DNA of 64,000 bases, taken from assembly GCA_963783365.1 (NCBI GenBank), contig CAWANI010000009.1, forward strand, positions 418,406-482,405, in the 5' to 3' direction. Shown here piece after piece: positions 3,751-63,611 of this stretch. The stretch comes from an uncultured delta proteobacterium (GTDB taxonomy: Bacteria > Desulfobacterota > Desulfuromonadia > Desulfuromonadales > CAWANI01). The notes under the pieces were generated by a model. The model saw only the letters and a list, made by a program, of their open reading frames with translations. It had not been told where the DNA came from and did not search any database. A program made the position numbers and the translations under genes. Position 1 is the stretch's first letter. Each line of letters opens with the position of its first letter.

Positions 3751-4320
3751 CTATCGGCCGACTTGTCTTATCGACCGAATGATCACCGGTTTTCGCGGCA
3801 GAGCCTGAAACGGTCCGTCCTTTTTTTCGGTGGCCACTCTCCCAATGGTATCAACAACCTGCATTCCTTCAACCACCTTGCCGAAAGCGCAGTAGCCGAA
3901 TCCCTGCGGAGTGGCGCTGCGATGGTTCAAAAAATCGTTGTCAGTTAAATTAATGAAGAATTGACTGGTGGCGCTGTCCACCATCGGCGTGCGGGCCATG
4001 GCGATTGTACCCCGCTCGTTTTTCACCCCGCTGGCCGCTTCATTCTTGATCGGCGGATCGCTCGCCTTGCGTTTCAGATCGACGGTGTACCCCCCGCCCT
4101 GAATCATGAAACCCTTGATCACTCGGTGAAAGATCGTCCCGTCATAAAACCCCGCCTTGGCGTAGTGGAGAAAATTCTTCACCGTGACCGGGGCTTTCTG
4201 ATCGAAAAGCTCCAGTTTGATCGTGCCGTAGTTCGTTTGAATCGCCGCAAAGGTTGCCGCCTGAACAGGCGTTGTCACCAACAACAGAAGAAGAAGAAGA
4301 GAAAGTATCGAGCGACGCAT
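3751..4320 (-). CDS. ppiA: Periplasmic peptidyl-prolyl cis-trans isomerase, cyclophilin type
   Basis: Signal peptide MRRSILSLLLLLLLVTTPVQA. Cyclophilin core FHRVIKGFMIQGGG ... GTIAMAR. Confidence 0.9.
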   Translation of the reverse strand: MRRSILSLLLLLLLVTTPVQAATFAAIQTNYGTIKLELFDQKAPVTVKNFLHYAKAGFYDGTIFHRVIKGFMIQGGGYTVDLKRKASDPPIKNEAASGVKNERGTIAMARTPMVDSATSQFFINLTDNDFLNHRSATPQGFGYCAFGKVVEGMQVVDTIGRVATEKKDGPFQALPRKPVIIRSIRQVGR

Positions 4321-11153: not shown

Positions 11154-12245
11154 TCAGCCTTCATCGATGATGTTTCCGCGTGTCACACGAAAAAAGCGGG
11201 CGATTTTCATGCCCTCGTTTTTAAAAGGGGTGCAGTCCGTCGTTGTGAGAAAAACCTGGCCCCGGCGGGAGAGAAGGAAATGGAAAAGAAAGCCTTTTCG
11301 GTGACGATCCAGTTCACTGGTCATATCGTCCAGAAGGAGAATAGGAGGCTCTCCCAACCGTTTTTCCAGATCGATAATCTGGGCCGTTTTATAAGCGAGC
11401 ATAAAAGAGCGTTGCTGTCCCTGCGAGCCGTACAGGCGAAGGGGCCGTCCCTCAATGAGAAACAGAGGGTCGTCCCGGTGAGGTCCTGCCAGGGTTTGTC
11501 CCAGGTGGACCTCCCTGTTTGCTGCCTTTTTCAACTCGCTTCGCAGGGCCTCTCGAAAATCCTCCACCTTTTCCCCGGGAGATTCAATATGGATATCCGC
11601 TTTTTCGCCGTTTCCGGCAATGGTGTCATAGCACTGCCGCAACAGGGGAGCGAGAGAAACCAGATAACGGAAGCGTTCCCAGCGCAAGCGGCCTCCGGCA
11701 TCGATCAAGCCTTCGGTCCAAGGAATCAATTCTTCGCCAAGACGGCCCTCTTTAAGAAGCCGATTGCGCTGTTTCAAACAGCGCTCATATTCCTGGACCT
11801 TTTCCAGATAGAGGGGTTGGGCCTGGAAGATCGAACGATCCAGCAGAGCCCGTCTGCCCGCCGGGGGGCCCTTGACGAGACTCACTTCCTCGGGAGAGAA
11901 AAGAACCGGGCGCAAAAATCCGAAAAAATCTCGACCGGATCGTACTTTCTTGCCGTCGATACGGACCGATTTACTCGCTTGTTCGATGGCGAGCTCGAGA
12001 CGACGGTTAACGGCGAGATTGGTCACCTCTCCCTGCAATCGAGCCTGATCGCTGCCGCTGCGGATCAGCTCGGGGTTGCGCGCTCCCCGGAAACTTTTCA
12101 GATGTCCGAGAAGATAGATAGCTTCGAGAAGATTCGTCTTTCCCTGGGCATTGTCACCCCAGAAAATATTGAAGCCCTCGGATGGAGTAAAATCGATTGT
12201 CTCGATATTGCGAAAATTTTTGTATTTCAACCGGGTAAGTTGCAT
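11154..12245 (-). CDS. recF: DNA replication and repair protein RecF
   Basis: 363-aa ORF. Walker A GDNAQGKTNLLEA. Position in the canonical dnaA-dnaN-recF-gyrB order. Confidence 0.93.
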   Translation of the reverse strand: MQLTRLKYKNFRNIETIDFTPSEGFNIFWGDNAQGKTNLLEAIYLLGHLKSFRGARNPELIRSGSDQARLQGEVTNLAVNRRLELAIEQASKSVRIDGKKVRSGRDFFGFLRPVLFSPEEVSLVKGPPAGRRALLDRSIFQAQPLYLEKVQEYERCLKQRNRLLKEGRLGEELIPWTEGLIDAGGRLRWERFRYLVSLAPLLRQCYDTIAGNGEKADIHIESPGEKVEDFREALRSELKKAANREVHLGQTLAGPHRDDPLFLIEGRPLRLYGSQGQQRSFMLAYKTAQIIDLEKRLGEPPILLLDDMTSELDRHRKGFLFHFLLSRRGQVFLTTTDCTPFKNEGMKIARFFRVTRGNIIDEG

Positions 12246-12301
12246 GAAATACAGTTAATATTCGGAAAATGGAAAAATTTTAGTGCACTCCCAACTCAGC
12301 A

Positions 12302-13421
12302 TTATAACCTCATTGGCATGACGACCGCCAGATAATCTTGATCGTCGGGAGGAATCGAGCAGGCCGGGAGAGAGGTTGTCCTTGAGCATCAAACTGATCT
12401 GATCGGTCTGCTGGTTCTGGAGAATATCCAACAGATAACGAGCGTTGAAGCCGATGGAAATCTCCGGACCTTCATAAACGATATCCAGTTCTTCTCTCGC
12501 GTCGCCGAATTCGGGATTTGAAGAAGAAATTTCCATCGTCCCGGCACGGAGAAGAAGTTTTACACCTCGCGATTTTTCATTGGAAAGAATAGACATGCGG
12601 CGTAATGCGTGAAGAAACGGCTCACGCTCGATAGTCGATTTGAATTCGTTGTTTTTTGGAATGACCCGATCGTAATCGGGAAAATCACCGTCGACAAGGC
12701 GCATAACGACAATGGTTTGATCTTTTTTTATAACCGCACTATTTTCGAGAAATCCTATGGAAATATCGGTTTCCCCTTCCTCGGTCATTTTTTTTAATTC
12801 CTGGATTCCTTTTCTGGGAAAAATAACCCCTTTGCGAAGTTCATCTATGTGGGAAATATTCGATTCTCTTTGAATAAGGGAGAGCCGGTGTCCATCGGTA
12901 GCTACCAAACGGAGAAGAAGTTTCTCCTTTTGTTCTAAACTCTGAAAATAGATGCCGTTTAAATTATATTTACTTTCATCCGTAGAAACGGAAAAGGCGG
13001 TTTTGTCGATCATTTCCTTAAGGAGTATGCTTTTTAAAGAAAAAAAGTTACTTTTTTCCGGCAAAGGAAAGTGTGGAAATTCCTCTGCTGAGAGACCGAC
13101 AATGTTAAATAGGGCTTTTCCGCAACGAATTTCAATCCAAGAATTTTGTTTGGTTTGGAAGGCAATTTCCTTTTCTGGAAGTTCGCGGATGATTTCGAAT
13201 ATTTTTTTCGCGGAAACGGTAATTTTTCCAGCAATTTTTACTTCTGCCGGAAATGAGGCCCGCATACCGACTTCAAGGTCCGTGGCCGTCAGGTGAATTT
13301 GGCCATCTTCGGCATCGATGAGAACGTTGGAGAGAATGGGGATGGTGTTCCGTTTTTCCACGATGTTCTGAATGCGAGACAGTCCTTTTTGAAAAACCTC
13401 TTTTTCGATCCTGAAGTCCAT
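12302..13421 (-). CDS. dnaN: DNA polymerase III beta sliding clamp; reading frame broken by one base near the 3' end as sequenced
   Basis: ORF 12255..13421 is beta-clamp-like throughout, but its last ~35 codons are off-frame. Removing one C from the CCC run at about 12348-12350 restores the canonical C-terminus DDQDYLAVVMPMRL with TAA at 12302-12304. Confidence 0.9.
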
Positions 13422-13587: not shown

Positions 13588-13621
13588 CGTGGATAAAAAA
13601 GGCGAGGCTTTTTTATCCACA
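13588..13621. promoter_or_regulatory. Inverted pair of DnaA boxes in the dnaA-dnaN intergenic region
   Basis: CGTGGATAA (13588-13596; reverse complement TTATCCACG, 8/9) and TTATCCACA (13613-13621, 9/9). They form 13-nt inverted arms GTGGATAAAAAAG / CTTTTTTATCCAC, with AT-rich DNA to the left (13520-13570). Confidence 0.65.
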
Positions 13622-13711: not shown

Positions 13712-15066
13712 TTATTGAAAAATCATATTTTTTATCAGATTGAGAGTGGCGCGTAGCTGAAAATCCGCTTCCAGATTTTTTTCGATTTTCTTAATGGCAT
13801 GAATGATTGTCGAATGGTCCTTGCCGCCAAAACGATCCCCTATTTCCGGGTAAGAGGAAGAGGTCAGCTGGCGGGAAAGATACATCGCTATCTGGCGGGG
13901 AAGAACCAGTGCCTTAAACGTTTTGCCGATTTAAGATCGGAAATTTTAATGTTGAAATGAAGAGATACGGCTTTTTGAATTTCCTCGACCGTCAGTTCTC
14001 TATTTTTTTCTACCAAAATGTCCTTTAGGACCTCACGGGCCATAGCGAGTGAGACCGGGGTGGACGTCAGACTGGCGTAGGCGCCGATGCGGACTAGAAA
14101 TCCCTCTAATTCGCGGACGTTGCTGCTGACAGAATTGGCCAGGAAGAGGGCCACTTCCTCCGGAAGGTCGATATTATTTTGTTCGGCCTTCATTTTGAGG
14201 ATGGCCTGTTTGGTTTCCACATCCGGGGCCTGAATATCGGCGATCAGTCCCCATTCAAAACGGGACCTCAATCTTTCCTCTAGGCCGGGGATCTCTTTTG
14301 GAAATTTGTCGGATGTCACGACGATTTGTTTGTGAGATTCGTAAAGGGCATTGAATGTGTGGAAAAATTCCTCCTGGGTCCGCTCCTTGCCGGCAATGAA
14401 CTGAACATCGTCGATGAGAAGTATATCCATGGACCTGAATTTATTGCGAAAATCATCCATCTTTGCGTAGCGCAACGAATTGATCAGTTCGTTCATAAAT
14501 TTTTCGGACGTATAGTAGCAGATGCGCATCTCCGGGGATTTATGAAAAATGGCATTGCCGATAGCATTGACCAAATGGGTTTTCCCCAGGCCAACTCCGC
14601 CGTAAATAAACAAAGGGTTATACGTTGTCGCGGGATTCGTTGCAACTGCCATGGCAGCGGCGTAAGCAAACTGATTAGAAGATCCCGAAACGAATTCTTC
14701 AAATGTATATTTGCCGATGAGGTTACCGCTGTTCCAGTCCCTCGGGGGTAGAGTTTTGGTCCGTTCCACCGCCGGAACACGGGGAGGGGGGTCTGGAGGT
14801 GCGGTTGTTTCGACCTTCTCCTGCGAGCGAGGGGCGACCTTCAGCTGAATGCGATAGTCTATCGCGCCGACCCGGGAAAGGGTCGACCGGATGATCTGCT
14901 CGTAGTGTTCCCTGACCCAATCCAGAACGAAGCGGTTCGGAACTTCTAATTTGACCAGGTCTTTTTCCACACCGAGAAACCGGATCGGTTTTATCCAGGT
15001 GTTGAAATGTTGGGGATTTAGTCCCTCTTCAATCAAAGCGAGGGTCTCTTGCCACAGTCTGTGCAT
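13712..15066 (-). CDS. dnaA: Chromosomal replication initiator DnaA; reading frame broken by one base in domain IV as sequenced
   Basis: ORF 13888..15066 has Walker [11 protein letters not shown] and stops at TAG 13888. Adding one base near 13914-13918 restores [45 protein letters not shown]...NMIFQ, ending at TAA 13712-13714. Confidence 0.92.
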
Positions 15067-15102
15067 GAAAATGTTTGCCTGATTTCTTTGGTAAATATTT
15101 AA

Positions 15103-15134
15103 ATATCCACAGACTTATTCACAGTTGTGGATAG
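15103..15134. promoter_or_regulatory. Three DnaA boxes directly upstream of dnaA (oriC / dnaA autoregulation candidate)
   Basis: ATATCCACA (15103-15111), TTATTCACA (15115-15123) and TGTGGATAG (15126-15134; reverse complement CTATCCACA), each 8/9. They sit in the divergent dnaA/rpmH intergenic region where gene orientation switches. Confidence 0.65.
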
Positions 15135-15289: not shown

Positions 15290-15318
15290 TTGACAGAATT
15301 ATGGATATGTGGTTAATA
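15290..15318 (+). promoter_or_regulatory. Candidate sigma70 promoter of rpmH-rnpA
   Basis: TTGACA (15290-15295), 17-nt spacer, then TTAATA (15313-15318) preceded by TGG. It lies 48 nt upstream of the rpmH ATG. Confidence 0.4.
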
Positions 15319-35188: not shown

Positions 35189-35917
35189 GTGTTGGGGAGA
35201 TTTTCCGTGAAGAGAAAACCGATCGAGCGCCATCAGACGTTGAGGGAAAAGATCCTCGAGACGATTCGCGAGGCCATCCTGAAAGGAACCCTCAAGGCGG
35301 GGGAAAAGGTGGCCGAACCCGAATTGGCCGAAAGATTCGGCATCAGTCGCACGCCGATCCGCGAGGCCTTCCGTCAACTCGAGTCGGAAGGGTATCTCAC
35401 CGTGATTCCCCGCAAGGGCGCCGTCGTCACCTCCCTTTCCGAACGGGATGTGGAAGAGTTTTACGCCATCAAAAGTATTCTTGAGGGATATGCCGCGAGA
35501 ATGGCGGCGGAAAACCTCAGCGCCAAGGATATCGAGCGTCTCGAGACCATCAACGATCGCCTTGAACAGCTCGCCGAGGAAGGTGACATCAAAACCTACT
35601 TCCGGGTCCACAACGAGTTCCACGAACTTTTCATCCGGGCCGCCGGCAACGAAAAGTTGCTCGAACTCATCGGCCAGCTGATGATGAAGTTCAACCGCCT
35701 GCGGATGGCCTCGTTGTCCCTGCCCGGCCGCATGCAGATTTCGGTGCAGGAGCATAAGAAAATTCTGGATGCCTTTCGGTCTCACGACGGGGAGATGGCG
35801 GACAACCTGGTCCGGCAGACCGCCGCCTTCGGCGGAAAGGTCCTGATCCAGAGTATGGCCAAAGAGGAAGGGCGCCGGGTCGAAAACTCCGTGCTGCAGC
35901 GTCTCGTAGACGTCTGA
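35189..35917 (+). CDS. GntR-family transcriptional regulator, FCD domain
   Basis: wHTH EPELAERFGISRTPIREAFRQLESEG plus an FCD-type C-terminal domain. GTG start at 35189 or 35207. Confidence 0.88.
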   Translation: MLGRFSVKRKPIERHQTLREKILETIREAILKGTLKAGEKVAEPELAERFGISRTPIREAFRQLESEGYLTVIPRKGAVVTSLSERDVEEFYAIKSILEGYAARMAAENLSAKDIERLETINDRLEQLAEEGDIKTYFRVHNEFHELFIRAAGNEKLLELIGQLMMKFNRLRMASLSLPGRMQISVQEHKKILDAFRSHDGEMADNLVRQTAAFGGKVLIQSMAKEEGRRVENSVLQRLVDV

Positions 35918-37272: not shown

Positions 37273-40200
37273 TTACCTCTGCCCCAGCAGGCAGCGAACT
37301 TTTTCCATTAGAGCATCCGGCGTGAAGGGTTTTTGCAAAAAGGCCCTAAAGCCGTCAGCGTGCAAACCCTTCTTGCCGTGAAATTGACCGTACCCCGACA
37401 TGTAGAGGATTTTGATCCCGGGCACCTGCTCTTCCACCTGTTTCGCCAATTCCGCACCGCTCATCGCCGGCATGACCAGGTCGGTCACCAGCAGGTCGAT
37501 CGCCCCCTTCCCTGTTTCCCTGAAGAGCATTTCTCCCCTTTTTTTCTCCAGCTTCTCCAGGGCCTCCCGAGCGGTCTGCGCACTGAGAACGGTAAAACCG
37601 CTCTCCCGCAGGGCTTGCTCTACCAGCCGCAGTACCGCGAGCTCATCCTCGACCAGCAGGATCGTACCTTGATCGCCGGGAGGAGGGGGTGTCCAATTTT
37701 TACCGGTATCCTCAGGTGGTTCGTCGGTGCGTGGGAGAAAAATTTGAAAACATGATCCCTTGCCGGGAGCGCTTTCGAGCAGGATGTAACCGGCACTCTG
37801 TTTGACGATACCGAAGACGGTGGAGAGGCCCAGGCCGGTTCCGCGGCCCTGTTCCTTGGTCGTGTAAAATGGCTCGAAGACCCGCGCCTGAATCTCTTCG
37901 GACATTCCCGTGCCGCTGTCGCAGACCGAAAGAACCACATAGCGGCCGGGAACCGCTCCGCGATGGCCTTGCACGAAGGCCTCATCGATGTCGGCTTCGC
38001 TGGTGGAAATAGTGATATCCCCCCCCTGCGCCATGGCGTCGCGGGCGTTGATCACCAGGTTGAGCAGAACCTGCTCCAATTGTCCCGGGTCCGCCTTGAC
38101 CGGACCAACGCCCTCGCCGGGAGAAAAACAGTAGGCGATGTTCTCTTGCAGAAAACGCTGCAGGATTTTGGAAAAAGAGTGGATCAATGCATTGAGATCC
38201 AACACCTTCGGTTCAAGGACCTGGCGTCGGCTGAACGCCAGAAGCTGGCGGGTCAAAGCAGAAGCCCGCTGGCCGGCCTGCAACACCAGTTCGGCGTCTC
38301 CTCGTTTGGCAACGTCGTCCTTCAATGCGCGGATCAAGTGGGTGCTGTAGCCGTTGATGACCGTTAGCAGGTTGTTGAAATCGTGAGCGATGCCGCCGGC
38401 CAACTGGCCGATGGCTTCGAATTTCTGCACGACGTGGAGTTGATCAGCGGTCTGCTGACGAGCCTGTTCGGCGCGCACGCTGCGGATGGCGAGGGCCGCG
38501 GTCTGGGCAAAGGATTCCATCTCCTTCCGGTCGTTTTCCGAAAAGACGCCGGCCTTGTTGGCCAGGCCGATGTATCCGACGACCTGTGCGCCGATTTTCA
38601 GGGGAACGCCCAGAAAGTTAACAATAGGCGGATGCCAGGGAGGAAGCTTGTTGTCCAAAAAGAAAGGAGTCCCCTCGTTGTTCCAGAGAACCGTCTCGCC
38701 CCGGGTGGCGGAGGCGTGCAGAAGTTTGCCCGGGGAACAGAGGGTGGCGGAGGGTTTCATCTCTATTTTGCTTTCGAGGTCTTTAAACAGGGTGGTTCCC
38801 TTCCACTCTCCGCGGTTCTCCGAGACCGCCAGCAGCTGTCCCCGGTCGGGGTTTTCCAGGTCGTAGAGCAGGCCAATGGCGGCGCCGGAAATCTCCAGAC
38901 AGCGGTCGAGCATGACCGTGGCCATATCGTGAATGTTGCCGGTGAGCAGAAAACGCAGAAAGGATTCGGTCGCCGCCTCGAGAAGAAGCTGCCGGCGCCG
39001 CTCGGCGGCCGCCGCCTCATGTTGTTCGGTAACATCGCGAAAACTTTTTACCCGGCCCACGATTTGATTGTCGATATATTGAGGTTTGGAATAGTGGGCC
39101 ACGATTCGGCCGTCTTTAAAATGATAGGTGCCCCAACCCGTTTCGGTGGGATTGTCGTCAAGAGCGGCAATCTGGGAGAGAAATTGCTCGGGAGTTTTTA
39201 CCTGATTTTGAGCGAAATTCCGTACCGTATCGATCGCCCCCGAGGCCAGAGTGGCCTCGGGAATGTTCCACATTTCCACAAATTTTCGATTGCAGGCGAC
39301 GATTCGGCCCTGTCGGTCGATCGCCAGAATGCCGTCTGCCGTCGACTCCAGGGTCGCCGCCAGAAGAGAGTGCAACTTTTTAAAATTCTCTTCGCTTTTT
39401 TTCAAATCGGTAATGTCGCGAATGCTTTCGATGACGGCGACGACCTCCCCCTTCTCGTTTTTTATCGGCGCCGCGTCGAAGACACAGTAATGTTTTTCGC
39501 CGTCCCGAAATGTAAGCCATGCCTCCCCTTGCAGTCCATCGGGGCAATGCGGCGAACGCCGATAGCTTTCATACAGCCCCGTCAGATCCCCGGACTTCTT
39601 CTCGAGAACAAGATCAGCCAAGACGGGGCGCTGGTGTTCGTAGAAAGCCCACCATTGATTTCGGGTTCCAACCATTTCGGCGGCCTGAATCCCGGTCAGC
39701 AATTCGCAGGCTCGATTCCAGGCCAGCACCCGATGATTGGTATCCAGCACCAGAGTCGGAATGGAGGCACGCTGTACCAGGCTCTCGGAAAAACGCCGCT
39801 GATCCTCCAAGGCGGATTTTTTCTGGGCAATGTCGCTCAGCATCCGATTAAAGGACTTGGCAAGGGTGGCGATCTCGTCATCGGCGCGGATATCGATCAA
39901 GGGGGGGGCATCTTCCTCCCCGGTGATTTGTTCGACATGCCGGGTGAAAAGAAGCAGCGGGGCGGTCAGGTATCTCATGAAAAACCAGACCAGGACAATC
40001 GAGAAGACGAGAGTAACCGCCAGGGCGAAGGCAAAAAAACGCTCCGCCCGATAAACGGGCGCATAGGCTTCGTCCAGGGGAAAATCGGCACCCAGGATCC
40101 ATCCGGTATTCTGCAGGTGCTTAAAGGAAGAGAGGACGGGCTGGCCCGTCGAAGTGACCCTTTCGCCGGTTCCCTCAAACCCCCTGAGGGCCCGATCGAT

Positions 40201-40922
40201 CAAGGGGTGGGCTTCGAGGGCAGCCGCAGGGGTGACAATTTTGTTTTGGATCGGGACCAATGAGGGTGGAGCGGCTCTGATCAAATAGGTAGAGATATCC
40301 CTGTTTTCCCCAAACGGATGTCGGCCAGGTTTTCGAAAAAACTGCTTTTTAGCAGGTCGACGGAACCGCCGAGAACAGCGCGGATTTGCCCTGTGGGGTC
40401 CTTGATGGGGGCGGCGAACGTTATCAGGGGGTGATGAGGCTTATCGCTCGAAAAGTATACTTTGGACAGGCAGGGTTTCCCGGTGACGACGATACGGGCG
40501 AAAAAGTCGTGTTTTGACCAATTTCGATCGGCCACGAGCGGTCCGTGGGGGGATGCAGCCAATAGCCGGCCCGAAGGAGAGAAAACAGAAATTCCGTTGT
40601 TGAAGAATTGCTTGATTCCCACGCCCCGCATTTGATCAAGAAAGTCCTGGGTTTTTTCGGCGGATTTCAGTACGCCGGGGGAGATGGTCTGGGCCGTTCC
40701 GGAGATAAATGCCCGGCCCGTGTCGATCATGGAATCCACCTCGGTGGCGATTTCCGAAACCAGAACAAATTGTTGGGTGGAAATTTCGGCTTTAAGGCTT
40801 TTTTCAAAATAGGAAAAGCACAAAATGCTGAACAGCCCCAGAAGAAACAGAACCAATAAGGCAACCACCAGGGTTATCTTGGTTTTTAAACTCCAAAACC
40901 GCAAAAATTCCCCCTCTCCCAT
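37273..40922 (-). CDS. Hybrid sensor histidine kinase (TM-Cache-TM-HAMP-PAS-PAS-GAF-HisKA-HATPase-REC), split into two ORFs by frameshift(s) as sequenced
   Basis: ORF 40281..40922 gives a TM helix plus the first half of a Cache-like domain, ending ...IRLGKTG. ORF 37273..40284 continues with the second half (GFEGTGERV...FKHLQNTGWILGADFP), a TM helix, HAMP, PAS, H-box GIAHDFNNLL and a C-terminal receiver. A third frame reads TGYLYLFDQSR across the junction. Confidence 0.85.
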
Positions 40923-41472: not shown

Positions 41473-43315
41473 GTGGATGAGATGCTTCCTTCAGAGTTGA
41501 CTTGTGTTTCTACGTCAGCGGATGATGGGCAATTCAAGGCTATGGCCGAATCGGCTCCCGTCATGATCTGGCTCTCGGGAACCGACCAGGACGGCACTTT
41601 TGTCAACCGGGCGTGGCGTCACTTCACCGGATGGAGTAAAGAGGAGGAGCCGGGAAGAGATTGGATCAAGCTGATTCATCCCGACGATCGAGAAAAAACC
41701 CTGGAAATTTCAGGAAAAGCATTCGAAGCCGTGGCGGCGTTCAGGCTGGAATACCGCCTTCGGCGATACGATGGCGTTTACCGCTGGGTTCTGGATAAAG
41801 GCGTGCCGCGGGTTACCGACGACGGCGTGTTCATCGGATACGTTGGTTTTTGTATCGATATCAGTGCGCATCGAGATCTTGAAAAGCAATTACAGGAGCT
41901 GAATGCTACCCTCGAGCAACGGGTCTCTGAGCGGACCGAATCCCTACAGGAAATCAACGCGACGTTAAAAAAAGAGATCGCCGAACGGAAAGGAATTGAA
42001 AAGGAGTTGCATCAAGGCCGGGCAGCCCTGGCGGCGCAGCATGCGGAACTGAACCGGGTGTTTCACCAGGTGGAGATGGCCAAGCGGGAGTGGGAAGCCA
42101 CCATGGACTGCATCGAGGACACCGTGGTCATTCTCGTCGACGACCTGGGGGCCATTCGTCGTTGCAACAGCGCCTTAGCCGAGTTGACGGGCTGCTCCTA
42201 TGGCGAATTGAAGGGGAAAAATGTCAAGAAGGTTCTGCGGGGATGTGGCTTCCACTGTGGGGAATGTTTCGCGAATGGCGAAGAAATCCGGCAGGAACCC
42301 AGCGGCCGGTGGTTTGTCTTGAGCAATTATCCCCTGAAGAATTCGGGGGCAGGGGGAGGCAAGGTTCTTGTTGCTCACGATTACACGAAGTTGAAAGGTC
42401 TCACCCAGCAGCTCGAGGAATCGAACCGGGAACTGGAGGCCAAGGGGCGGGAACTCGAAAGGGCCAACGCCGAGCTGAAAGAGACCCAGGTGAAAGTCCT
42501 GCAGCAGGAAAAGATGGCGACCATCGGTCAGCTGGCCGCCGGGGTGGCTCATGAGATCAACAATCCGATCGGATTTATCTCCAGCAATCTCGGGACCCTG
42601 GAGAAGTATATCGGAAAATTCACCGCTTTCATCGACGCCCAAACAACGCTCCTGCGGGAAGTGGGAGCGCAGGATGCCTTGGATGCCCTCGCCAAAAAGC
42701 GCCGGGAGCTCAAGCTCGACTTCGTCACCGAGGATATCGGCGACCTGATCCGGGAATCCCTGGGGGGGGCCGAGCGGGTGAAGAAAATCGTCCAGGACCT
42801 TAAGACTTTCTCCCGGGTGGACCAAGCCGAGTCCAAGTTCGTGGACCTGGTCGAGTGCATCGAAAGTACGGTGAATATCGTCTGGAACGAACTGAAATAC
42901 AAAGCGACACTGGAGAGGGAGTACGGGGATCTGCCGCTGATCAAGTGCTATCCCCAACAGTTGAATCAGGTCATCTTGAATTTACTGGTCAATGCCGGGC
43001 ACGCCATTGAAAAAGACGGCCGGATTACGCTGAAAGCTTGGCAGGAGGGCTTGGCCGTTTATTTTTCGGTTGCCGACAACGGTTGCGGCATCCCCCGGGA
43101 GAATCTGACCAAACTCTTCGAGCCCTTTTTCACCACCAAGGAGGTCGGTCAGGGGACCGGTCTCGGGTTGAGCATCGCCTACGATATCGTGAAAAAACAT
43201 CATGGCGAAATATCCGTCCGAAAGCGAAGTCGGTAAAGGAACGGCCTTTACCATCTCTCTGCCTCTGATAGACGTAGAGGGGGACGAGGTTGCTTCGGCG
43301 GGAACGATGGATTGA
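41473..43315 (+). CDS. PAS/PAS sensor histidine kinase; last ~30 codons off-frame as sequenced
   Basis: ORF 41473..43236. PAS (HPDDRE...YRLRRYDGVYRW), H-box [27 protein letters not shown]. Removing one C at 43218/43219 restores the standard end ISVESEVGKGTAFTISLP... with TGA at 43313-43315. Confidence 0.88.
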
Positions 43316-52739: not shown

Positions 52740-53127
52740 TTTCCCTCTCAATGTAATCACCCTTGTTTCACAACCCATCCGTGAAGGGATTTTTTTTCCT
52801 CCATTGATGCTGACCCGGGTCGCTGAGGCTAAACCGGCCTGAACAGGCGAGCCCTCAATTGGCGGTCTCACATACTTTTCAAACGCCCGGAATCTGTTTC
52901 TTACCACAAATTCTGCGGATTTTCCCGGGAAAAGACCAATCGGCGGCGCCCTTCAGATCGTGTTCGATTGAAAATGGAGGTGCGGGAGGAGGCTGGCGGC
53001 CCTTTTCCCGCTTCTGCACCAACTGGGCCTTGATTCCGACGGTCGGTTGTGCCATATTGCGGGACGCGCCGCGGGTTTTGCCCCGATCGGCCGCCTGAGT
53101 CCCACGACATTCAAATGGAGGTTTGTG

Positions 53128-53694: not shown

Positions 53695-54559
53695 TTCGAA
53701 GAGGGGGAAAGTCCTTTTCCCGGCTGAAGACAATGGTGGGAATGGCATCGAAACGGGTGGGTCGCCGGCAGGGTTGGCGACACACCCGTTTTGCTTTTAC
53801 GCCCAGAAGGGCCCGGACCACCTCGCCCGCCATGGTGAGCCCGAAGATGGGGGGGATATAGGAGGAGCTGCCGAGAATGACGCGGCGGTCGGTGCAGTGC
53901 CACGACTGCTCCTCCCGGTTGGGGCAGATGCAGTTTTCGGCGCAGACGTTGGCAGCGTTTCCCAGGGGGAGAAATTCCTCGGTGGAATAGACCACCTTGA
54001 CCCCGGAGGAGATGCCGCGGCGGCGAAGTTCCTTGCGCAGCACCCGGGCCAGGCGGCACTTTTGCGTCTGGAACAGATCGGCCACGGCGATCTTGGTCGG
54101 GTCGAGCTTGTTGGCCGCTCCCATCGAGGCGATGATCGGAATACCGGCCTCCTTGCAGCTCTGGATGAGGTGCAGTTTGGCGGTGATGTGATCGATGCAG
54201 TCGAGAACGAAATCGTATCCGCGATGCAGCAGCTCGGCCGCGTTTTGCGCCGTGTAGAAGGCCTTGATCGGCTCGACTTGGAGAGCCGGATGGATAGCCC
54301 GACAGCGCTCTGCCATGATCCGGACCTTGGGGTGGCCGATGGTCCCCTCCAGGGCATGGATCTGGCGGTTGGTGTTGGTCAGGCAGATATCGTCGAAATC
54401 GATCAGGGTCAGCCGGCCGATGCCGGCTCGCGCCAGGGCTTCGGCGGCGAAGCTGCCGACCCCGCCGACGCCGAAGACGGCCACCGAGGCGGCGGCGAGG
54501 CGGGCCTGCCCCGCCTCGCCGACCAGAAGTTCCATGCGGGAAAAGCGATGTTGTTTCAT
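53591..54559 (-). CDS. tcdA: tRNA threonylcarbamoyladenosine dehydratase (TcdA/CsdL, ThiF family); 3' end uncertain
   Basis: ThiF Rossmann motif VAVFGVGGVGSFAAEALARAG, DFDDICLTNTNRQ. The last ~70 codons of the ORF run through the terminator hairpin and overlap the convergent gene, so the real stop may lie near 53.8 kb. Confidence 0.75.
   Translation of the reverse strand: MKQHRFSRMELLVGEAGQARLAAASVAVFGVGGVGSFAAEALARAGIGRLTLIDFDDICLTNTNRQIHALEGTIGHPKVRIMAERCRAIHPALQVEPIKAFYTAQNAAELLHRGYDFVLDCIDHITAKLHLIQSCKEAGIPIIASMGAANKLDPTKIAVADLFQTQKCRLARVLRKELRRRGISSGVKVVYSTEEFLPLGNAANVCAENCICPNREEQSWHCTDRRVILGSSSYIPPIFGLTMAGEVVRALLGVKAKRVCRQPCRRPTRFDAIPTIVFSREKDFPPLRTRSLPQSRPGRCRRSHRHPRCRNRHGCTDSRGRP
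53751..53798 (+). terminator. Intrinsic terminator downstream of the beta-barrel gene
   Basis: AAACGGGTG-G-GTCGCC / GGCGAC-A-CACCCGTTT inverted repeat (15 paired nt, 9-nt loop) followed by TTTTGCTTTT. Confidence 0.7.
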
Positions 54560-57890: not shown

Positions 57891-60800
57891 GGCTGAAATC
57901 TCCTTGCGTGTTTTTCGGCTTTTTTGCCGTAGATGAGCCAGTAGACGACGGGGATCACCACCAGGGTGAAGGCGGTCGAGGCGAAGACCCCGAAGATGAT
58001 CGACCAGGCGAGCCCCGAGAAGATCGGATCGAGGGTGATGACCCAGTTGCCGAGCAGAGCGGCGCCCGCCGTGAGGAGGATCGGCCGCAGGCGCACGGCG
58101 CCGCTTTCGATGATCGCCTCCTTGAGCGGAACGCCCCGGCGCAGGGCGTGGTGGATGAAGTCGATGAGGATGATCGAGTTGCGCACCACGATCCCGGCCA
58201 GGGCGATCATGCCGATCATCGCCGTGGCGGTGAAGAAGACGGGAGTGTTGTACCCTCCCACCTGGTGGTTCATGATCAGGTTGAGGAGCCAGAAGCCGGG
58301 CATGATGCCGATCATCGTCAGCGGGATCGCGCCCATAATGATCAGCGGCATGGCGTAGGAGCTGGTCTCGATCAGCAGCAGGATGTAGATCATGACCAGG
58401 GCTGCGCCGAAGGCGATGCCCAGGTCGCGAAAGACATCGAGCGTGATCTTCCACTCCCCCTCGCCGTTCCAGACCACGCTGGTGCCGGTGGGCAGGGAGT
58501 GCTTCTTGAACCACGAGGAGAGATTGAGAATGGCATTGACCGGGCTCTTGCCGGCCATATTGCCGAAGACGTAGACCACCCGCTGGAGATTCTTGTGGTA
58601 GATGGTCGGGGCGAGGGTTTCGTGTTCAAAGCGCCCCAGTTCCGAGAGACGCACAAGTTTGTTCCCGGCCCCGTGGACATCGAGGGCGCCCAGCTCGGAG
58701 GCCGAGGAGCGGCTGCGCAGAGGCAGGCGCTCCTCGATCCGAAGGGGATTGCGCTCCGAGGGGACGTGAACTGTGCCCACTGTCTGGCCGCCCAGGGCTA
58801 AGGCCAGGGTGCGGGCGATCTGCGCGTCGCTCACCCCGGAGAGAGCCGCCTTTTCCTTGTCGGGGACGAAGTGAAGCCGCCGCTGGGGGGCTTCGACGGT
58901 ATCGTCGACATCGACCACTTTGTCCTCCCGCTCCATGCGGGCCCGCACGATCTTGGCCGAGGCGATCTGCTGAGCGTAGCTGATCCCGGGGCGGGCGTAG
59001 ATCTCGGCGGTGAGGGTGGCGATGACCGGCGGGCCGGGGGGGACCTCGACGATTTTCAGATTGGCGCCGTGGGCCCGGGCGATGCGGGTCAGATCGTTGC
59101 GCAGCCGCAGGGTGATCTCGTGGCTCTGCTGGGCGCGCTCACCCTTGGGGGCGAGGTTGACGCGGATATCGGCCACGTTCGGCCCGTGGCGCATGTAGTA
59201 GTGGCGGACCATGCCGTTGAAGTCCATGGCGCTGGCGGTGCCGACGTAGGATTCGAAGTCGGTCACCTCGTTGACCGTGCCCAGGTAGTCCTCCAGGGCC
59301 CGCACCGCCGCGTCGGTCGTCTCCAGGGTGGTCCCCTCGGGCATGTCGACCACCAGCTGGAACTCGTTCTTGTTGTCGAAGGGGAGCATCTTCATCGGCA
59401 CCAGGTTGAACAGCGGCATGGCCATGGAGCCGAGCAGCAGCACCACCACCGCCCCGACCAGCAGCCAGGCCTTGCGCCGCGAATCGATGAAGGGCTCGAG
59501 GATGCGCCGGTAGACCTGGTAGATGCGGCTCTCCTCGAGGACGAACTCCTTCTCCTGCTTGCCGTACTCCCCCTTGAGGACGTGGTAGCTCATCCAGGGG
59601 GTGATGGTGAAGGCGACCAGCAGCGACATCAGCATGGTCAGCGGGACGTTGATCGCCATCGGCCGCATGTAGGGCCCCATCATGCCGGTGATGAAGAGCA
59701 TCGGCAAAAAGGAGAGGATGACCGCCAGGGTCGCCAGGATCACCGGCGGCCGCACCTCGTCGACGGCGGAGAGGACCGCCTCGCGCGGCGGCTCCTTCTT
59801 CATCTTGAAATGGCGGTAGATGTTCTCGACGTCGACGATGGGGTCGTCGACCAGCAGGCCCAGGGCCAGCACCAGGGCGAAGAGGGTGACCCGGTTGATG
59901 GTGTAGCCGAACCAGTAGTTGACCATCAGGGTCAGCGAATAGATGATCGGGATCGAGACCGAGACGATGAAGGCCTCGCGCCAGCCCAGGGCGAAGAGGA
60001 TCAGCGCGAGGACCGTCACCATGGCGATCAGCAGCTCCTCGATCAGCTCGTTGACCTTGTGGTTGGCGGTCTCGCCGTAGTCGCGGGTGACCCGCACCTG
60101 GATGTCGTCGGGGATGATCTGTCCCCTGCATGGCGTGCACGGCGTCGATCACCTCGTTGGCCACCACCACGGCGTTGGTCCCCTTCTTCTTGGCGACGGC
60201 GATGTTGACCGCCTGGTACTCGGTGCCCGTCGCGGCCGCCGCTTGGCGTCGCCGGCGGGGCCGAAGCGCAGCCGGGTGTAGGTCTGCGGCTCGGCCGGGC
60301 CGTCGCTGACCTTGGCGACGTCGCGCAGGTAGACCGGCGCGCCGTGGTCGACCCCGACCACCAGCCGCGCGACCTCGCGCGCCGAGCTGAAGAAGGTGCC
60401 GCCGCGCACCAGGATCTCCTGGTCGTCCCGCTCGAAAGCTGCCGGCCGGCAGCTCCAGGTTGGCGCCGGCAAGAGCCCGGCGCACGTCGAGCAGAGCGAT
60501 GCCCCGGGCGGCCATCGCCTCGGGATCGATCGCCACCCGCACCTGGCGGGGGCGGCCGCCGATGACCGTGGTCACCGAGGTGTTCTTCACCGACTGCAGC
60601 CGGTCGACCACCTCCTCGGCGACCCGGCGCAGCTCGTAGTCCGAATCGCTGCTTCGAGTAGAGGGTGAGGTTGACGATCGGCACGTCGTCGACGGCCACC
60701 GGCTTGATCACCCAGCCGGTCACCCCCGGCGGCACCAGGTCGGTGTGGGTGCTGATCTTGTTGTGCAGCTTGACCAGCGAGGCGATGCGGTCCTCGCCGA

Positions 60801-61115
60801 CGTAGAAGCGGGCGGTGACCACCGCCATGCCGGGGCGGGACATGGAGTAGACGTACTCCACCCCGTCGACCTGCCAGAGGAGCTTCTCCAGGGGGGTGGC
60901 GACGAGCTTCTCCACCTCCTTGGCGCTCGCCCCCGGCATGTGGACGTAGACGTCGGCCAGCGGCACCACGATCTGCGGCTCCTCCTCCCGGGGGGTCAGC
61001 ATCAGCGCCGCGGCGCCGGCCACCAGGGCGAGCAGGATGAGGATGACCGACAGGTTGCCGTCGAGGAACTTGTCGACGATGCGGGTCGGCAGGGAGTGTT
61101 TCCGACGCTCGCCAT
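57887..61115 (-). pseudogene. RND efflux permease (CzcA/CusA/AcrB superfamily); 5' third disrupted by at least six frameshifts as sequenced
   Basis: ORF 57887..60097 is an intact 736-aa C-terminal part. The N-terminal part is spread over three frames: IVDKFLDGNLSVILILLAL..., VDRLQSVKNTSVTTVIGGRPRQVRV..., FERDDQEILVRGGTFF..., YQAVNIAVAKKKGTNAV... ATG at 61115. Confidence 0.85.
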
Positions 61116-61118
61116 CGA

Positions 61119-62232
61119 TCAGCCCTCCACCCGGGCGCCGTTGCGGGCCTGCTCGGTGCCGGTGGCGACGATGGTCTCGCCGGGGCGCAGCCCGGAGAGG
61201 ATCTCCACCTGCTCGCCGAGGGTGCGGCCGGTGCGTACCAGCCGAAAGTGCAGAATCCCTTTTTCGACCGTATAAATCGCCGGTTAGCTGCCCGCGGGTG
61301 ACCAAGGCGCTACGCGGAATGAGCAGCGTCTTCCGGCTGCCGCCGGCGAGGCTCGCCCGGGCGAACATGCCGGCGGAGAGCCCTTGAGCATCCTGGCAGG
61401 ACAATTTTGACTTCGAAGGAGCGGCTGCTGGGATCTGCCGCGGGAAGGATGTCTTTGACCTGGCCGGCAAAGGAGCGGCCGACAGCAGGCACCGTCGACG
61501 CTGAAGGAATCCCGCCGATTCGCACCTTCCCGAAAAGCGATCTCGGGCAGATTCACCCGCACCTGCCAGCTCCCCGCCGCGGTCGAGGACCAGCAGGGGC
61601 GTGCCGGGCATCACGGTCGTGCCCGCCTCCACCTTTTTGCGCACGATCCGCCCGGCAAAGGGGGCGACGACGCGGGTGTAGGAGAGGGCCGTGCGGGCCG
61701 CACCTCGTGCCGCGACGGCGCCGTCGCGGGCCGCTCGGGCGGCGGCGAACTGGTGCCGGGCCGTTTCCAGTTCGGTGCTGACGCGGTCCATCTCCTGCGG
61801 GGTGACCGCTTCGTCGGTGAACAGCCTGCGGTAGCGGGCTTCGGTCTTTCGAGCCAGCTCGAGCCGGGCCTGGGCTGCGGCCATTTCCCTTCTGCTTGCT
61901 GGAGCGCCGCTTTGGCTTCGGCCAGCCGATCGCCGGCAACGTTGTCGTCGAATGGTGAGCAGCGGCGCGCCCCGTCGGACACGGTCCCCCTCGCGGACCA
62001 GGATCCGGTCGACCTGGCCGTCGATGCGAGCGGCCAGGACCCCCCGGTCGGGGCTTTCGACCGTACCGACGAAGGTCTCGGTCCCGGTCACTGAGCCGGT
62101 GGCCACGGTGGCCAGGGTCACGCCCTTGATCACCGGAGGCTTCCCTCGGTGCGTCCCGGTTCGATGTTGCCTCCGCAGGCGGCCAGGATGAGCAAGGAGC
62201 AGCAGGCTGCAGCAGATGGCGGATTTCTTCAC
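61119..62232 (-). pseudogene. RND membrane-fusion (periplasmic adaptor) protein; at least eight frameshifts as sequenced
   Basis: GTG 62232 overlaps the OMP stop (GTGA). The lipobox LLILAACGG sits in a second frame. Pieces KPPVIKGVTLATV..., DDNVAGDRLAEAKAALQQAE, EMAAAQARLELARK..., VRIGGIPSASTVPAVGRSFAGQVKDI... and IYTVEKGILHFRLVRTG...ARVEG* lie in alternating frames. Confidence 0.8.
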
Positions 62233-63583
62233 GGCTTCACCTCGTCGGGCAGAAAAGTTTTCAGGAACGTCCCATTCTGGAAGCGGATGTTGCCGAGGGC
62301 CATGCAGCAGGCCGGCCTCGGCCTTCACGGCGTCGAGGCGGGCCTGGTCCAGGGCGCTCTGGGTGCCGAGCAGGTCGGAGAGATTGGCCAGTCCGGCCTG
62401 GTAGCGCTCCAGGGTCAGGCGGTGTCCCTCCTCGGCCTCCTTTACCGCCTCTTGGGCGGTGGCGAGGTTGAGGCGGGCTTCTTCGGCCCGCCGCTTGGCT
62501 TCCTCGACCTGCAGGTTCGCTTCGCGGGCGGCGTCGCAGACGCTGGGCATCGACGGCCCGCTTGAGGGCCTCGGCGCGGGCTGTTTCCTTCGGCCGCGCC
62601 GACAGCCGTCGAAGAGGTCCCAGGTGAGCCCGACCCCCACCGTCCAGCTGCTGCCGTCGGCGCCGAAGGGGGTGGAGGAGTCGTGCAGGGCGTAGGAGGC
62701 CTGCAGGCCGACCCTGGGAAGGTAGGCGGCCTTGCTCTGGCGGTAGGCGAGGTCGGCGGCCTGGGACTGCAGGGCGAGGGCCTGCAGGTCGGCCCGCTCG
62801 GGCTTGCCGGCGGATCGATTTGCTCGCCGAAGAGGGCGGGGGTCAGGGGGACGGCGATGTCGAGGTCGTCCGCCGGCCGGCCCAGGGCGAGGGCAAAGCG
62901 CCGGCGGGCGATGGCCAGGTCGTTTTCGACCGTCAGCAGGCGGCGTTCGGTCTCGGCGAGAAAGACCCTGGCGCGCAGCTCGTCGGCCTTGAGGCCGATG
63001 CCGGCCTGGCGGCGCTGGCTCGGCGACCCGCAGCATCTCCAGGGCGTCCTTGTGCGAGGCCTGCGCCCAGCCGAGGGCGGCGTGGGCCCGCTGCAGGGCG
63101 AGGTAGGCGGCATAGGCGCCAAAGGCGATCTGCTCTTCGCTCCAGCGGGCCGTGGCCGCGGCCGCCTCGGCTCCCTTCTGCGCCCGGTGGTAGCCGTAGC
63201 TGATGTCGGGGTTGAACAGGGGCTGCTCCAGGGTTACCTTGGTTTCGAAATCCCTGGTGGTGCCGGGATGATTGTAGGGGGCGGCGCTCGGGAAAAGAGT
63301 TGAGATCCTCCTGGTTGAGCGTCATGAACATGCTGTTGCCCGGCTCGTTGGTGATGGCGAAGTTTTCCGCCGCCGTCACCTTGGGCAGATAGTAGCTCTT
63401 GGCCTCCCCGGCGGCGTGGCGGGCGGCCAGGGCCTGCTGCCGCGCCGCCATCGGCGGCCGGCCGTTGGCTCACCGCCTCGCGCAGGGCCTGCTTCAACCC
63501 GACCGTTTTGGTGCGCGGCCATGGCGGCCGGCACCGAAAAGCAGGGAAATAACGATGAGTAAAATCAAACCTTTTTTGCTCAT
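62229..63583 (-). pseudogene. TolC-family outer-membrane efflux protein; at least eight frameshifts as sequenced
   Basis: ATG 63583 with signal peptide MSKKGLILLIVISLLFGAG. Later pieces TVGLKQALREAVS, MAARQQALAARHAAGEAKSYYLPKV..., YNHPGTTRDFETKVTLEQPLF..., GIGLKADELRARVFLAETE..., KPERADLQALALQSQAADLAYR... and LNLATAQEAVKEAEEGHRLTLERYQAG... lie in three frames. Confidence 0.8.
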
Positions 63584-63611
63584 CGCACACCTCACAAAAC
63601 ATTCAAAAAAA

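Follow-up and report, generated by a model that had tools for sequence, protein, structure and literature searches.

Gene organization and DnaA boxes of the locus

Within the window, i.e., the whole stretch of 64,000 nucleotides that was analysed, the locus is an ordinary replication-origin region with dnaA and dnaN, from an uncultured Desulfuromonadales bacterium. The gene order rnpA-rpmH / dnaA-dnaN-recF-gyrB-gyrA is canonical, with gyrA, gyrB, recF, dnaN, and dnaA on the minus strand and rnpA, yidC, jag, mnmE, mnmG, rsmG, parA, parB, and the atp operon on the plus strand. The nearest named relatives are Desulfuromonas species, with ~78% DnaA identity; a collection of species-representative genomes contained no genome of this species, its best DnaA being ~80% identical. 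In the window as given, both dnaA and dnaN are interrupted by a single-base frameshift.

The features of the two genes and of the surrounding intergenic regions are as follows:

12255..13421, minus strand: dnaN, 388 aa, in which the canonical end ...LLIPPDDQDYLAVVMPMRL is replaced by an unrelated tail
12356..12357, minus strand: dnaN frameshift site, one base extra; the window reads CTCG, compared with CTC or CTG in the references
13588..13621: two DnaA boxes in the AT-rich spacer between dnaA and dnaN, one of which matches TTATCCACA perfectly
13712..13930, minus strand: dnaA 3' part, read in the -1 frame, with the remainder of domain IV (PRQ motif, helix-turn-helix, signature GGKDHSTI)
13888..15066, minus strand: dnaA 5' part, 392 aa, covering domains I-III and, of domain IV, the first helix, ending with TAG at 13888-13890
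13915..13916, minus strand: dnaA frameshift site, one base absent between the two positions, within Leu385, as placed by alignment with the five same-species loci listed below
15103..15134: three DnaA-box-like 9-mers immediately ahead of the dnaA start, between the divergent genes dnaA and rpmH
15308-15316: a fourth DnaA-box-like 9-mer, likewise upstream of dnaA

DnaA-box-like 9-mers, defined by at most one mismatch to TTATCCACA, occur 18 times in the window, compared with 5.9 expected, and none of 100 shuffles reached 18. Three of them, each with one mismatch, lie within 30 bases of an intergenic spacer at 2897-2926, ~12 kb from dnaA. They could represent a second DnaA-binding cluster, either as a regulated promoter or as part of a bipartite origin.

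The GC content falls to 43-49% across 12-18 kb (the dnaN-dnaA-rnpA-yidC block), compared with 58% for the window; dnaN has a GC content of 42.7% and a GC3 of 0.44, and the GC3 of gyrA is 0.78. This dip, together with the ends of one same-species reference (L001, ending at 11593 and 18262) close to it, raised the suspicion of a chimeric join, which was rejected: the change in GC3 along successive genes is gradual, neither recF nor jag is interrupted at these ends, and a second reference (L057) is colinear over 21 kb. Since the low GC at 12-18 kb is also found in related strains, it is a property of the species.

Reading frames of dnaA and dnaN

The upstream dnaA ORF runs from the ATG at 15066 to the TAG at 13888-13890, and the last 8 of its 392 residues are out of frame. 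The downstream frame is open from 13930 and terminates with TAA at 13712-13714; residues 385-451 of intact DnaA are encoded by 13715-13915. A protein search with the repaired DnaA retrieved P0001, a homologue of 451 aa with 100% identity. The upstream ORF matches P0001 through residue 384, followed by the 8 out-of-frame residues, and the downstream frame is identical to residues 385-451 of P0001, i.e., its last 67 residues. The window letters at the two sites are CGTTTAAGG at 13912-13920 (dnaA) and CTCGATT at 12354-12360 (dnaN). Inserting one G (minus strand) after ...AAACGTTT yields a protein 100% identical to P0001. The original prediction that one base inserted at 13914-13918 would restore DnaA is thus borne out, the missing base lying between 13916 and 13915.

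Domain assignments with Pfam place DnaA_N (PF11638), which corresponds to domain I, at residues 3-64 (E = 5e-20), and identify Bac_DnaA (PF00308) as the AAA+ domain III (E = 2e-72), with a Walker A motif GGVGLGKT at residue 156 and a Walker B motif ILLIDD at residue 215. The 69 positions of Bac_DnaA_C (PF08299) are divided between positions 1-27 in the upstream ORF and 26-69 in the downstream frame (E = 4.8e-21 for the latter), so that the sequence as given does not encode domains III and IV in one continuous frame. In alignments with B. subtilis DnaA (PDB 8BTG) and with E. coli DnaA domain IV on a DnaA box (PDB 1J1V), the break falls immediately past the counterpart of E. coli R399. The shift spares the first helix of domain IV but puts the remainder of the basic loop, the helix-turn-helix, and the DnaA signature GGKDHSTI out of frame. 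In the 1J1V complex, these are the elements that contact the DnaA box. The ORFs and Pfam hits therefore confirm the frameshift described in the original prediction, in which one inserted base extends the ORF at 13888..15066 to the TAA at 13712-13714. Its statement that domain IV is removed needs one correction: the first helix of the domain is retained, and the loss concerns what lies beyond the break.

In dnaN, the extra base replaces the last 17 residues with 33 unrelated ones. The reference DnaN has 372 aa and ends with ...VVMPMRL in all five same-species loci.

Comparison with same-species assemblies and relatives

Five loci of the same species were compared, from five samples and five independent public assemblies, at 94-99.7% DNA identity to the window:

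L001: Logan ERR11523667, 99.66% DNA identity to the window
L057: ENA ERZ23510489, 99.19% DNA identity over 21.4 kb
L058: Logan ERR6876540, 99.09% DNA identity to the window
L059: JGI 3300009060, 94.3% DNA identity to the window
L060: ENA ERZ27257104, 94.4% DNA identity to the window

All five encode an intact DnaA of 451 aa and an intact DnaN of 372 aa. Comparison with orthologous dnaA, proposed in the original prediction as a check, thus returned an intact 451-aa protein in each same-species assembly. Among proteins, the 90% cluster of P0001 holds three intact 451-aa members and P0363, which is exactly the 392-aa product of the window and is on record from NCBI and ENA, on a contig of 548,726 nt. 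The source contig was traced only by way of this cluster member, as exact matching of the 392-aa product, GyrB, and MnmG against a contig index gave no hit.

Relative to L001, the window shows 21 substitutions and exactly two indels, namely the dnaA (base missing) and dnaN (base extra) frameshifts. Relative to L057, these are likewise the only 1-nt coding indels over 21.4 kb. The remaining indels relative to L057 are intergenic ones at 15072, 15181, 19970, and 24903 and an in-frame 3-nt repeat change at 4286-4288; the indels at 15072 and 15181 are common to L001 and hence represent real polymorphisms. The repeat change at 4286-4288 concerns a TCT repeat near the 5' end of a cyclophilin-type isomerase gene; the length of this repeat differs in L059 and L060 too, and it is a genuine short-repeat polymorphism. 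As a separate observation, gyrB is called in L060 (5413-7800) as two genes of 436 and 341 aa with a 51-nt gap, and has 795 aa in L057 and L059.

The window represents a strain of its own. Of 15 coding substitutions between the window and L001, 9 are synonymous and 6 non-synonymous, with 3 synonymous and 0 non-synonymous in dnaA; the 9:6 ratio, and 3:0 in dnaA, argue that the strain differences are real and selected. Allele sharing over 5 kb (33 sites L001-like, 10 L057-like, 9 unique to the window) is compatible with a natural third strain, and with 9 unique substitutions in these 5 kb, none of the references is the same genome.

Among 52 related loci, dnaA lies in a single frame in 48, and a shift at the position seen in the window occurs in none of the 52, nor in any of the five same-species loci. 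JGI metagenome contigs gave no match to the exact pattern around the dnaA site with 0 or 1 extra base. Other draft assemblies also show a dnaA that looks broken: the gene is split over two frames elsewhere in three drafts, Geobacter sp. OR-1 (L033, 10233-10246), MAG MFD03899.bin.2.34 (L041, 10569-10573), and Idiomarina UBA6142 (L052, 8120-8150), at positions that all differ.

Strain-polymorphic codons at both frameshift sites

The codon context of the dnaA site varies synonymously among the references: CGT TTG AAG in L001, CGT CTT AAG in L057 and L058, and CGC CTC AAA in L059 and L060. The window reads CGT TT AAG, i.e., the TTG or CTT allele minus its distinguishing base. At the dnaN site, L001 has CTG CTC ATT and the other four references have CTG CTG ATT; the window reads CTG CTCG ATT, both alleles in tandem. 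In both genes, the frameshift therefore affects a Leu codon with synonymous variants among strains, and the window shows the intersection (dnaA) or the union (dnaN) of the alleles. Polymorphic sites make up ~0.9% of the region, and a rough estimate puts the joint chance of two random indels landing in this way at ~1e-4 or less. No homopolymer is present at the dnaA or the dnaN indel; with its lost base outside a homopolymer, dnaA is not a case of the classical homopolymer miscall.

Because both indels lie on polymorphic Leu codons and read as allele merges, they carry the signature of a mixed-strain consensus and not of mutation. The dnaA gene is very probably intact in the organism, and the two indels would be consensus errors of the deposited assembly, with a mixture of strains as their most likely source. 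The sample would have held at least two strains with synonymous differences in one Leu codon of dnaA and in one of dnaN, and reads of the two alleles may have been stacked in shifted register. The consensus would then have lost both distinguishing bases in dnaA (CTT/TTG to TT) and retained both in dnaN (CTC/CTG to CTCG). A contig of half a megabase with such an indel load points to long reads as the probable sequencing technology. Consensus indels that shift the reading frame have been documented as a property of MAGs built from long reads (PMC9262707). The allele-merge mechanism is demonstrated only for dnaA and dnaN, since the indels of an efflux operon elsewhere in the window (see below) are not enriched near SNPs of the references.

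Once one base is restored, all four domains of bacterial DnaA are present, together with the canonical gene order and flanking DnaA boxes; the repaired domain IV aligns with B. subtilis DnaA (8BTG) at E = 5.8e-30 and with the E. coli domain IV-DnaA box complex (1J1V) at E = 4.3e-22. There is no biological difference from bacterial DnaA; only the deposited frame breaks. As in long-read or mixed-strain MAG consensus sequences, the indels are single-base, split otherwise perfectly conserved genes, recur along one contig, and are contradicted by high-accuracy same-species assemblies; L041, with its broken dnaA, is itself a long MAG contig. However, unlike MAG errors of the homopolymer type, those in dnaA and dnaN sit on strain-polymorphic codons and resemble allele merges.

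Alternative explanations of the frameshifts

Random sequencing indels, caused by low coverage or base-caller noise with no mixture of strains, would lead to the same verdict of an artefact and differ only in mechanism. Noise of this kind would fit other indels of the window that lie in short homopolymers (A9 to A8 at 52789, GG to GGG at 53802, G5 to G4 at 37281, T6 to T5 at 40902), as well as the lack of enrichment of the efflux-operon indels at reference SNPs. However, the dnaA and dnaN indels lie outside homopolymers and are exact allele merges at polymorphic codons, which is very unlikely as noise; this origin is accordingly given the smaller share of the probability, at roughly one chance in five. 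A real mutation is far less probable than that. The strain would truly possess a dnaA cut short within domain IV and a dnaN whose C-terminus is scrambled; this could be a newly formed pseudogene of a defective or dying lineage, relic DNA, or a cell that uses another initiator. In favour of this explanation, the deposited sequence does contain the indels, databases record the 392-aa product, unique substitutions mark the window as a strain of its own, and the two broken genes are neighbours. Nevertheless, dnaA and dnaN, both essential and adjacent, would each have had to acquire a frameshift independently, exactly on a strain-polymorphic codon and in a form that reads as an allele merge. In addition, dnaA differs from L001 by synonymous changes alone and both of its halves are otherwise identical to the intact protein, the DnaA boxes are kept, the window contains no second dnaA, five related assemblies are intact, and many more indels contradicted by references occur in the same window. 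Relaxed selection and dispensability, the marks of a genuine pseudogene, were not found in the window that was searched: the protein equals P0001 except for one indel. A still less probable variant, hardly to be expected, is that the strain truly lives with a domain-IV-truncated DnaA and an altered beta clamp, replicating independently of DnaA boxes or using the AAA+ part as an Hda-like regulator beside an initiator encoded outside the window.

Least probable of all is programmed recoding, in which a -1 ribosomal frameshift or transcriptional slippage at ...AAA CGU UUA AGG... would produce full-length DnaA. The frame would be recovered by a -1 shift at any point of 13891-13930. However, no X XXY YYZ heptamer occurs in 13888-13940, the longest homopolymers in the shift zone have 4 nt, the shift is absent from all 52 related loci and the five same-species assemblies, and dnaN would need a separate +1 event. 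The likeness to dnaX (-1) and prfB (+1) is superficial, consisting in two overlapping frames that correspond to one protein; slippery site, conservation of the shift in relatives, and regulatory logic are all missing here. Programmed recoding is thus effectively refuted and can be excluded in practice. Judged from the sequences compared, the dnaA frameshift is almost certainly an ordinary assembly artefact and not a biological feature, and the failure of domains III and IV to be contiguous is attributed to the assembly rather than to the organism. The suspicion of a sequencing artefact voiced in the original prediction is supported by the intact dnaA and dnaN of the five assemblies and by the position of both indels on synonymous, strain-polymorphic Leu codons.

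Other suspect indels in the window

The proposal that dnaA and dnaN calibrate how far other apparent pseudogenes of the window can be trusted holds, as further frameshifts contradicted by references were found elsewhere. A GntR-like regulator carries a 1-nt indel at 35201, a PAS histidine kinase one at 43218, and a ThiF-like gene one at 53802, each near one end of the gene; an intergenic A-run indel lies at 52789 (the last two relative to L054 and L055). A multi-domain sensor kinase at 37273-40922 (minus strand), which has 1212 aa in L056, is split here into 213 and 1003 aa, with indels at 40302, 40248, and 37281. Some of the indels at 34-45 kb could be real differences, as the references there are only 95% identical.

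The densest cluster affects an RND efflux operon at 59500-63600 (minus strand), which encodes an outer-membrane factor, a membrane-fusion protein, and an AcrB-like pump. Relative to two references, ~31 single-base indels are spread over 60119-63542 (~3.5 kb), mostly G or C insertions outside homopolymers, and the AcrB domain is scattered over three frames, whereas both references have intact genes of 447, 368, and 1073 aa. Mismatches in this patch reach a density of 7-10% and are strongly biased from AT to GC, whereas the 7 kb beside it show ~1%; the patch looks like a badly resolved consensus. Its indels are not enriched beside SNPs that separate the two references (4 of 33 compared with 2.7 expected, P = 0.28).

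An entire efflux operon, several regulators, and two essential genes thus look broken in the window, yet other, independent assemblies of this species have them intact. In contrast, gyrA, gyrB, mnmE, mnmG, parA, parB, atpA, and atpD are intact in the window itself. Because the errors are patchy but frequent, no apparent pseudogene in the window is credible unless supported by reads, and a single-base frameshift in an otherwise perfect gene of this window is no evidence of pseudogenisation. An indel that falls on a strain-polymorphic codon and equals the union or intersection of two alleles indicates a collapsed-strain consensus error, even outside homopolymers, which makes it of practical diagnostic use. 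Further frameshifts had been suspected where same-strand frames overlap at 28.2-30.7 kb and 3.7-3.9 kb; these were rejected, since the frames proved to be either shadow frames of the atp operon, which is intact, or a pair of separate, complete genes.
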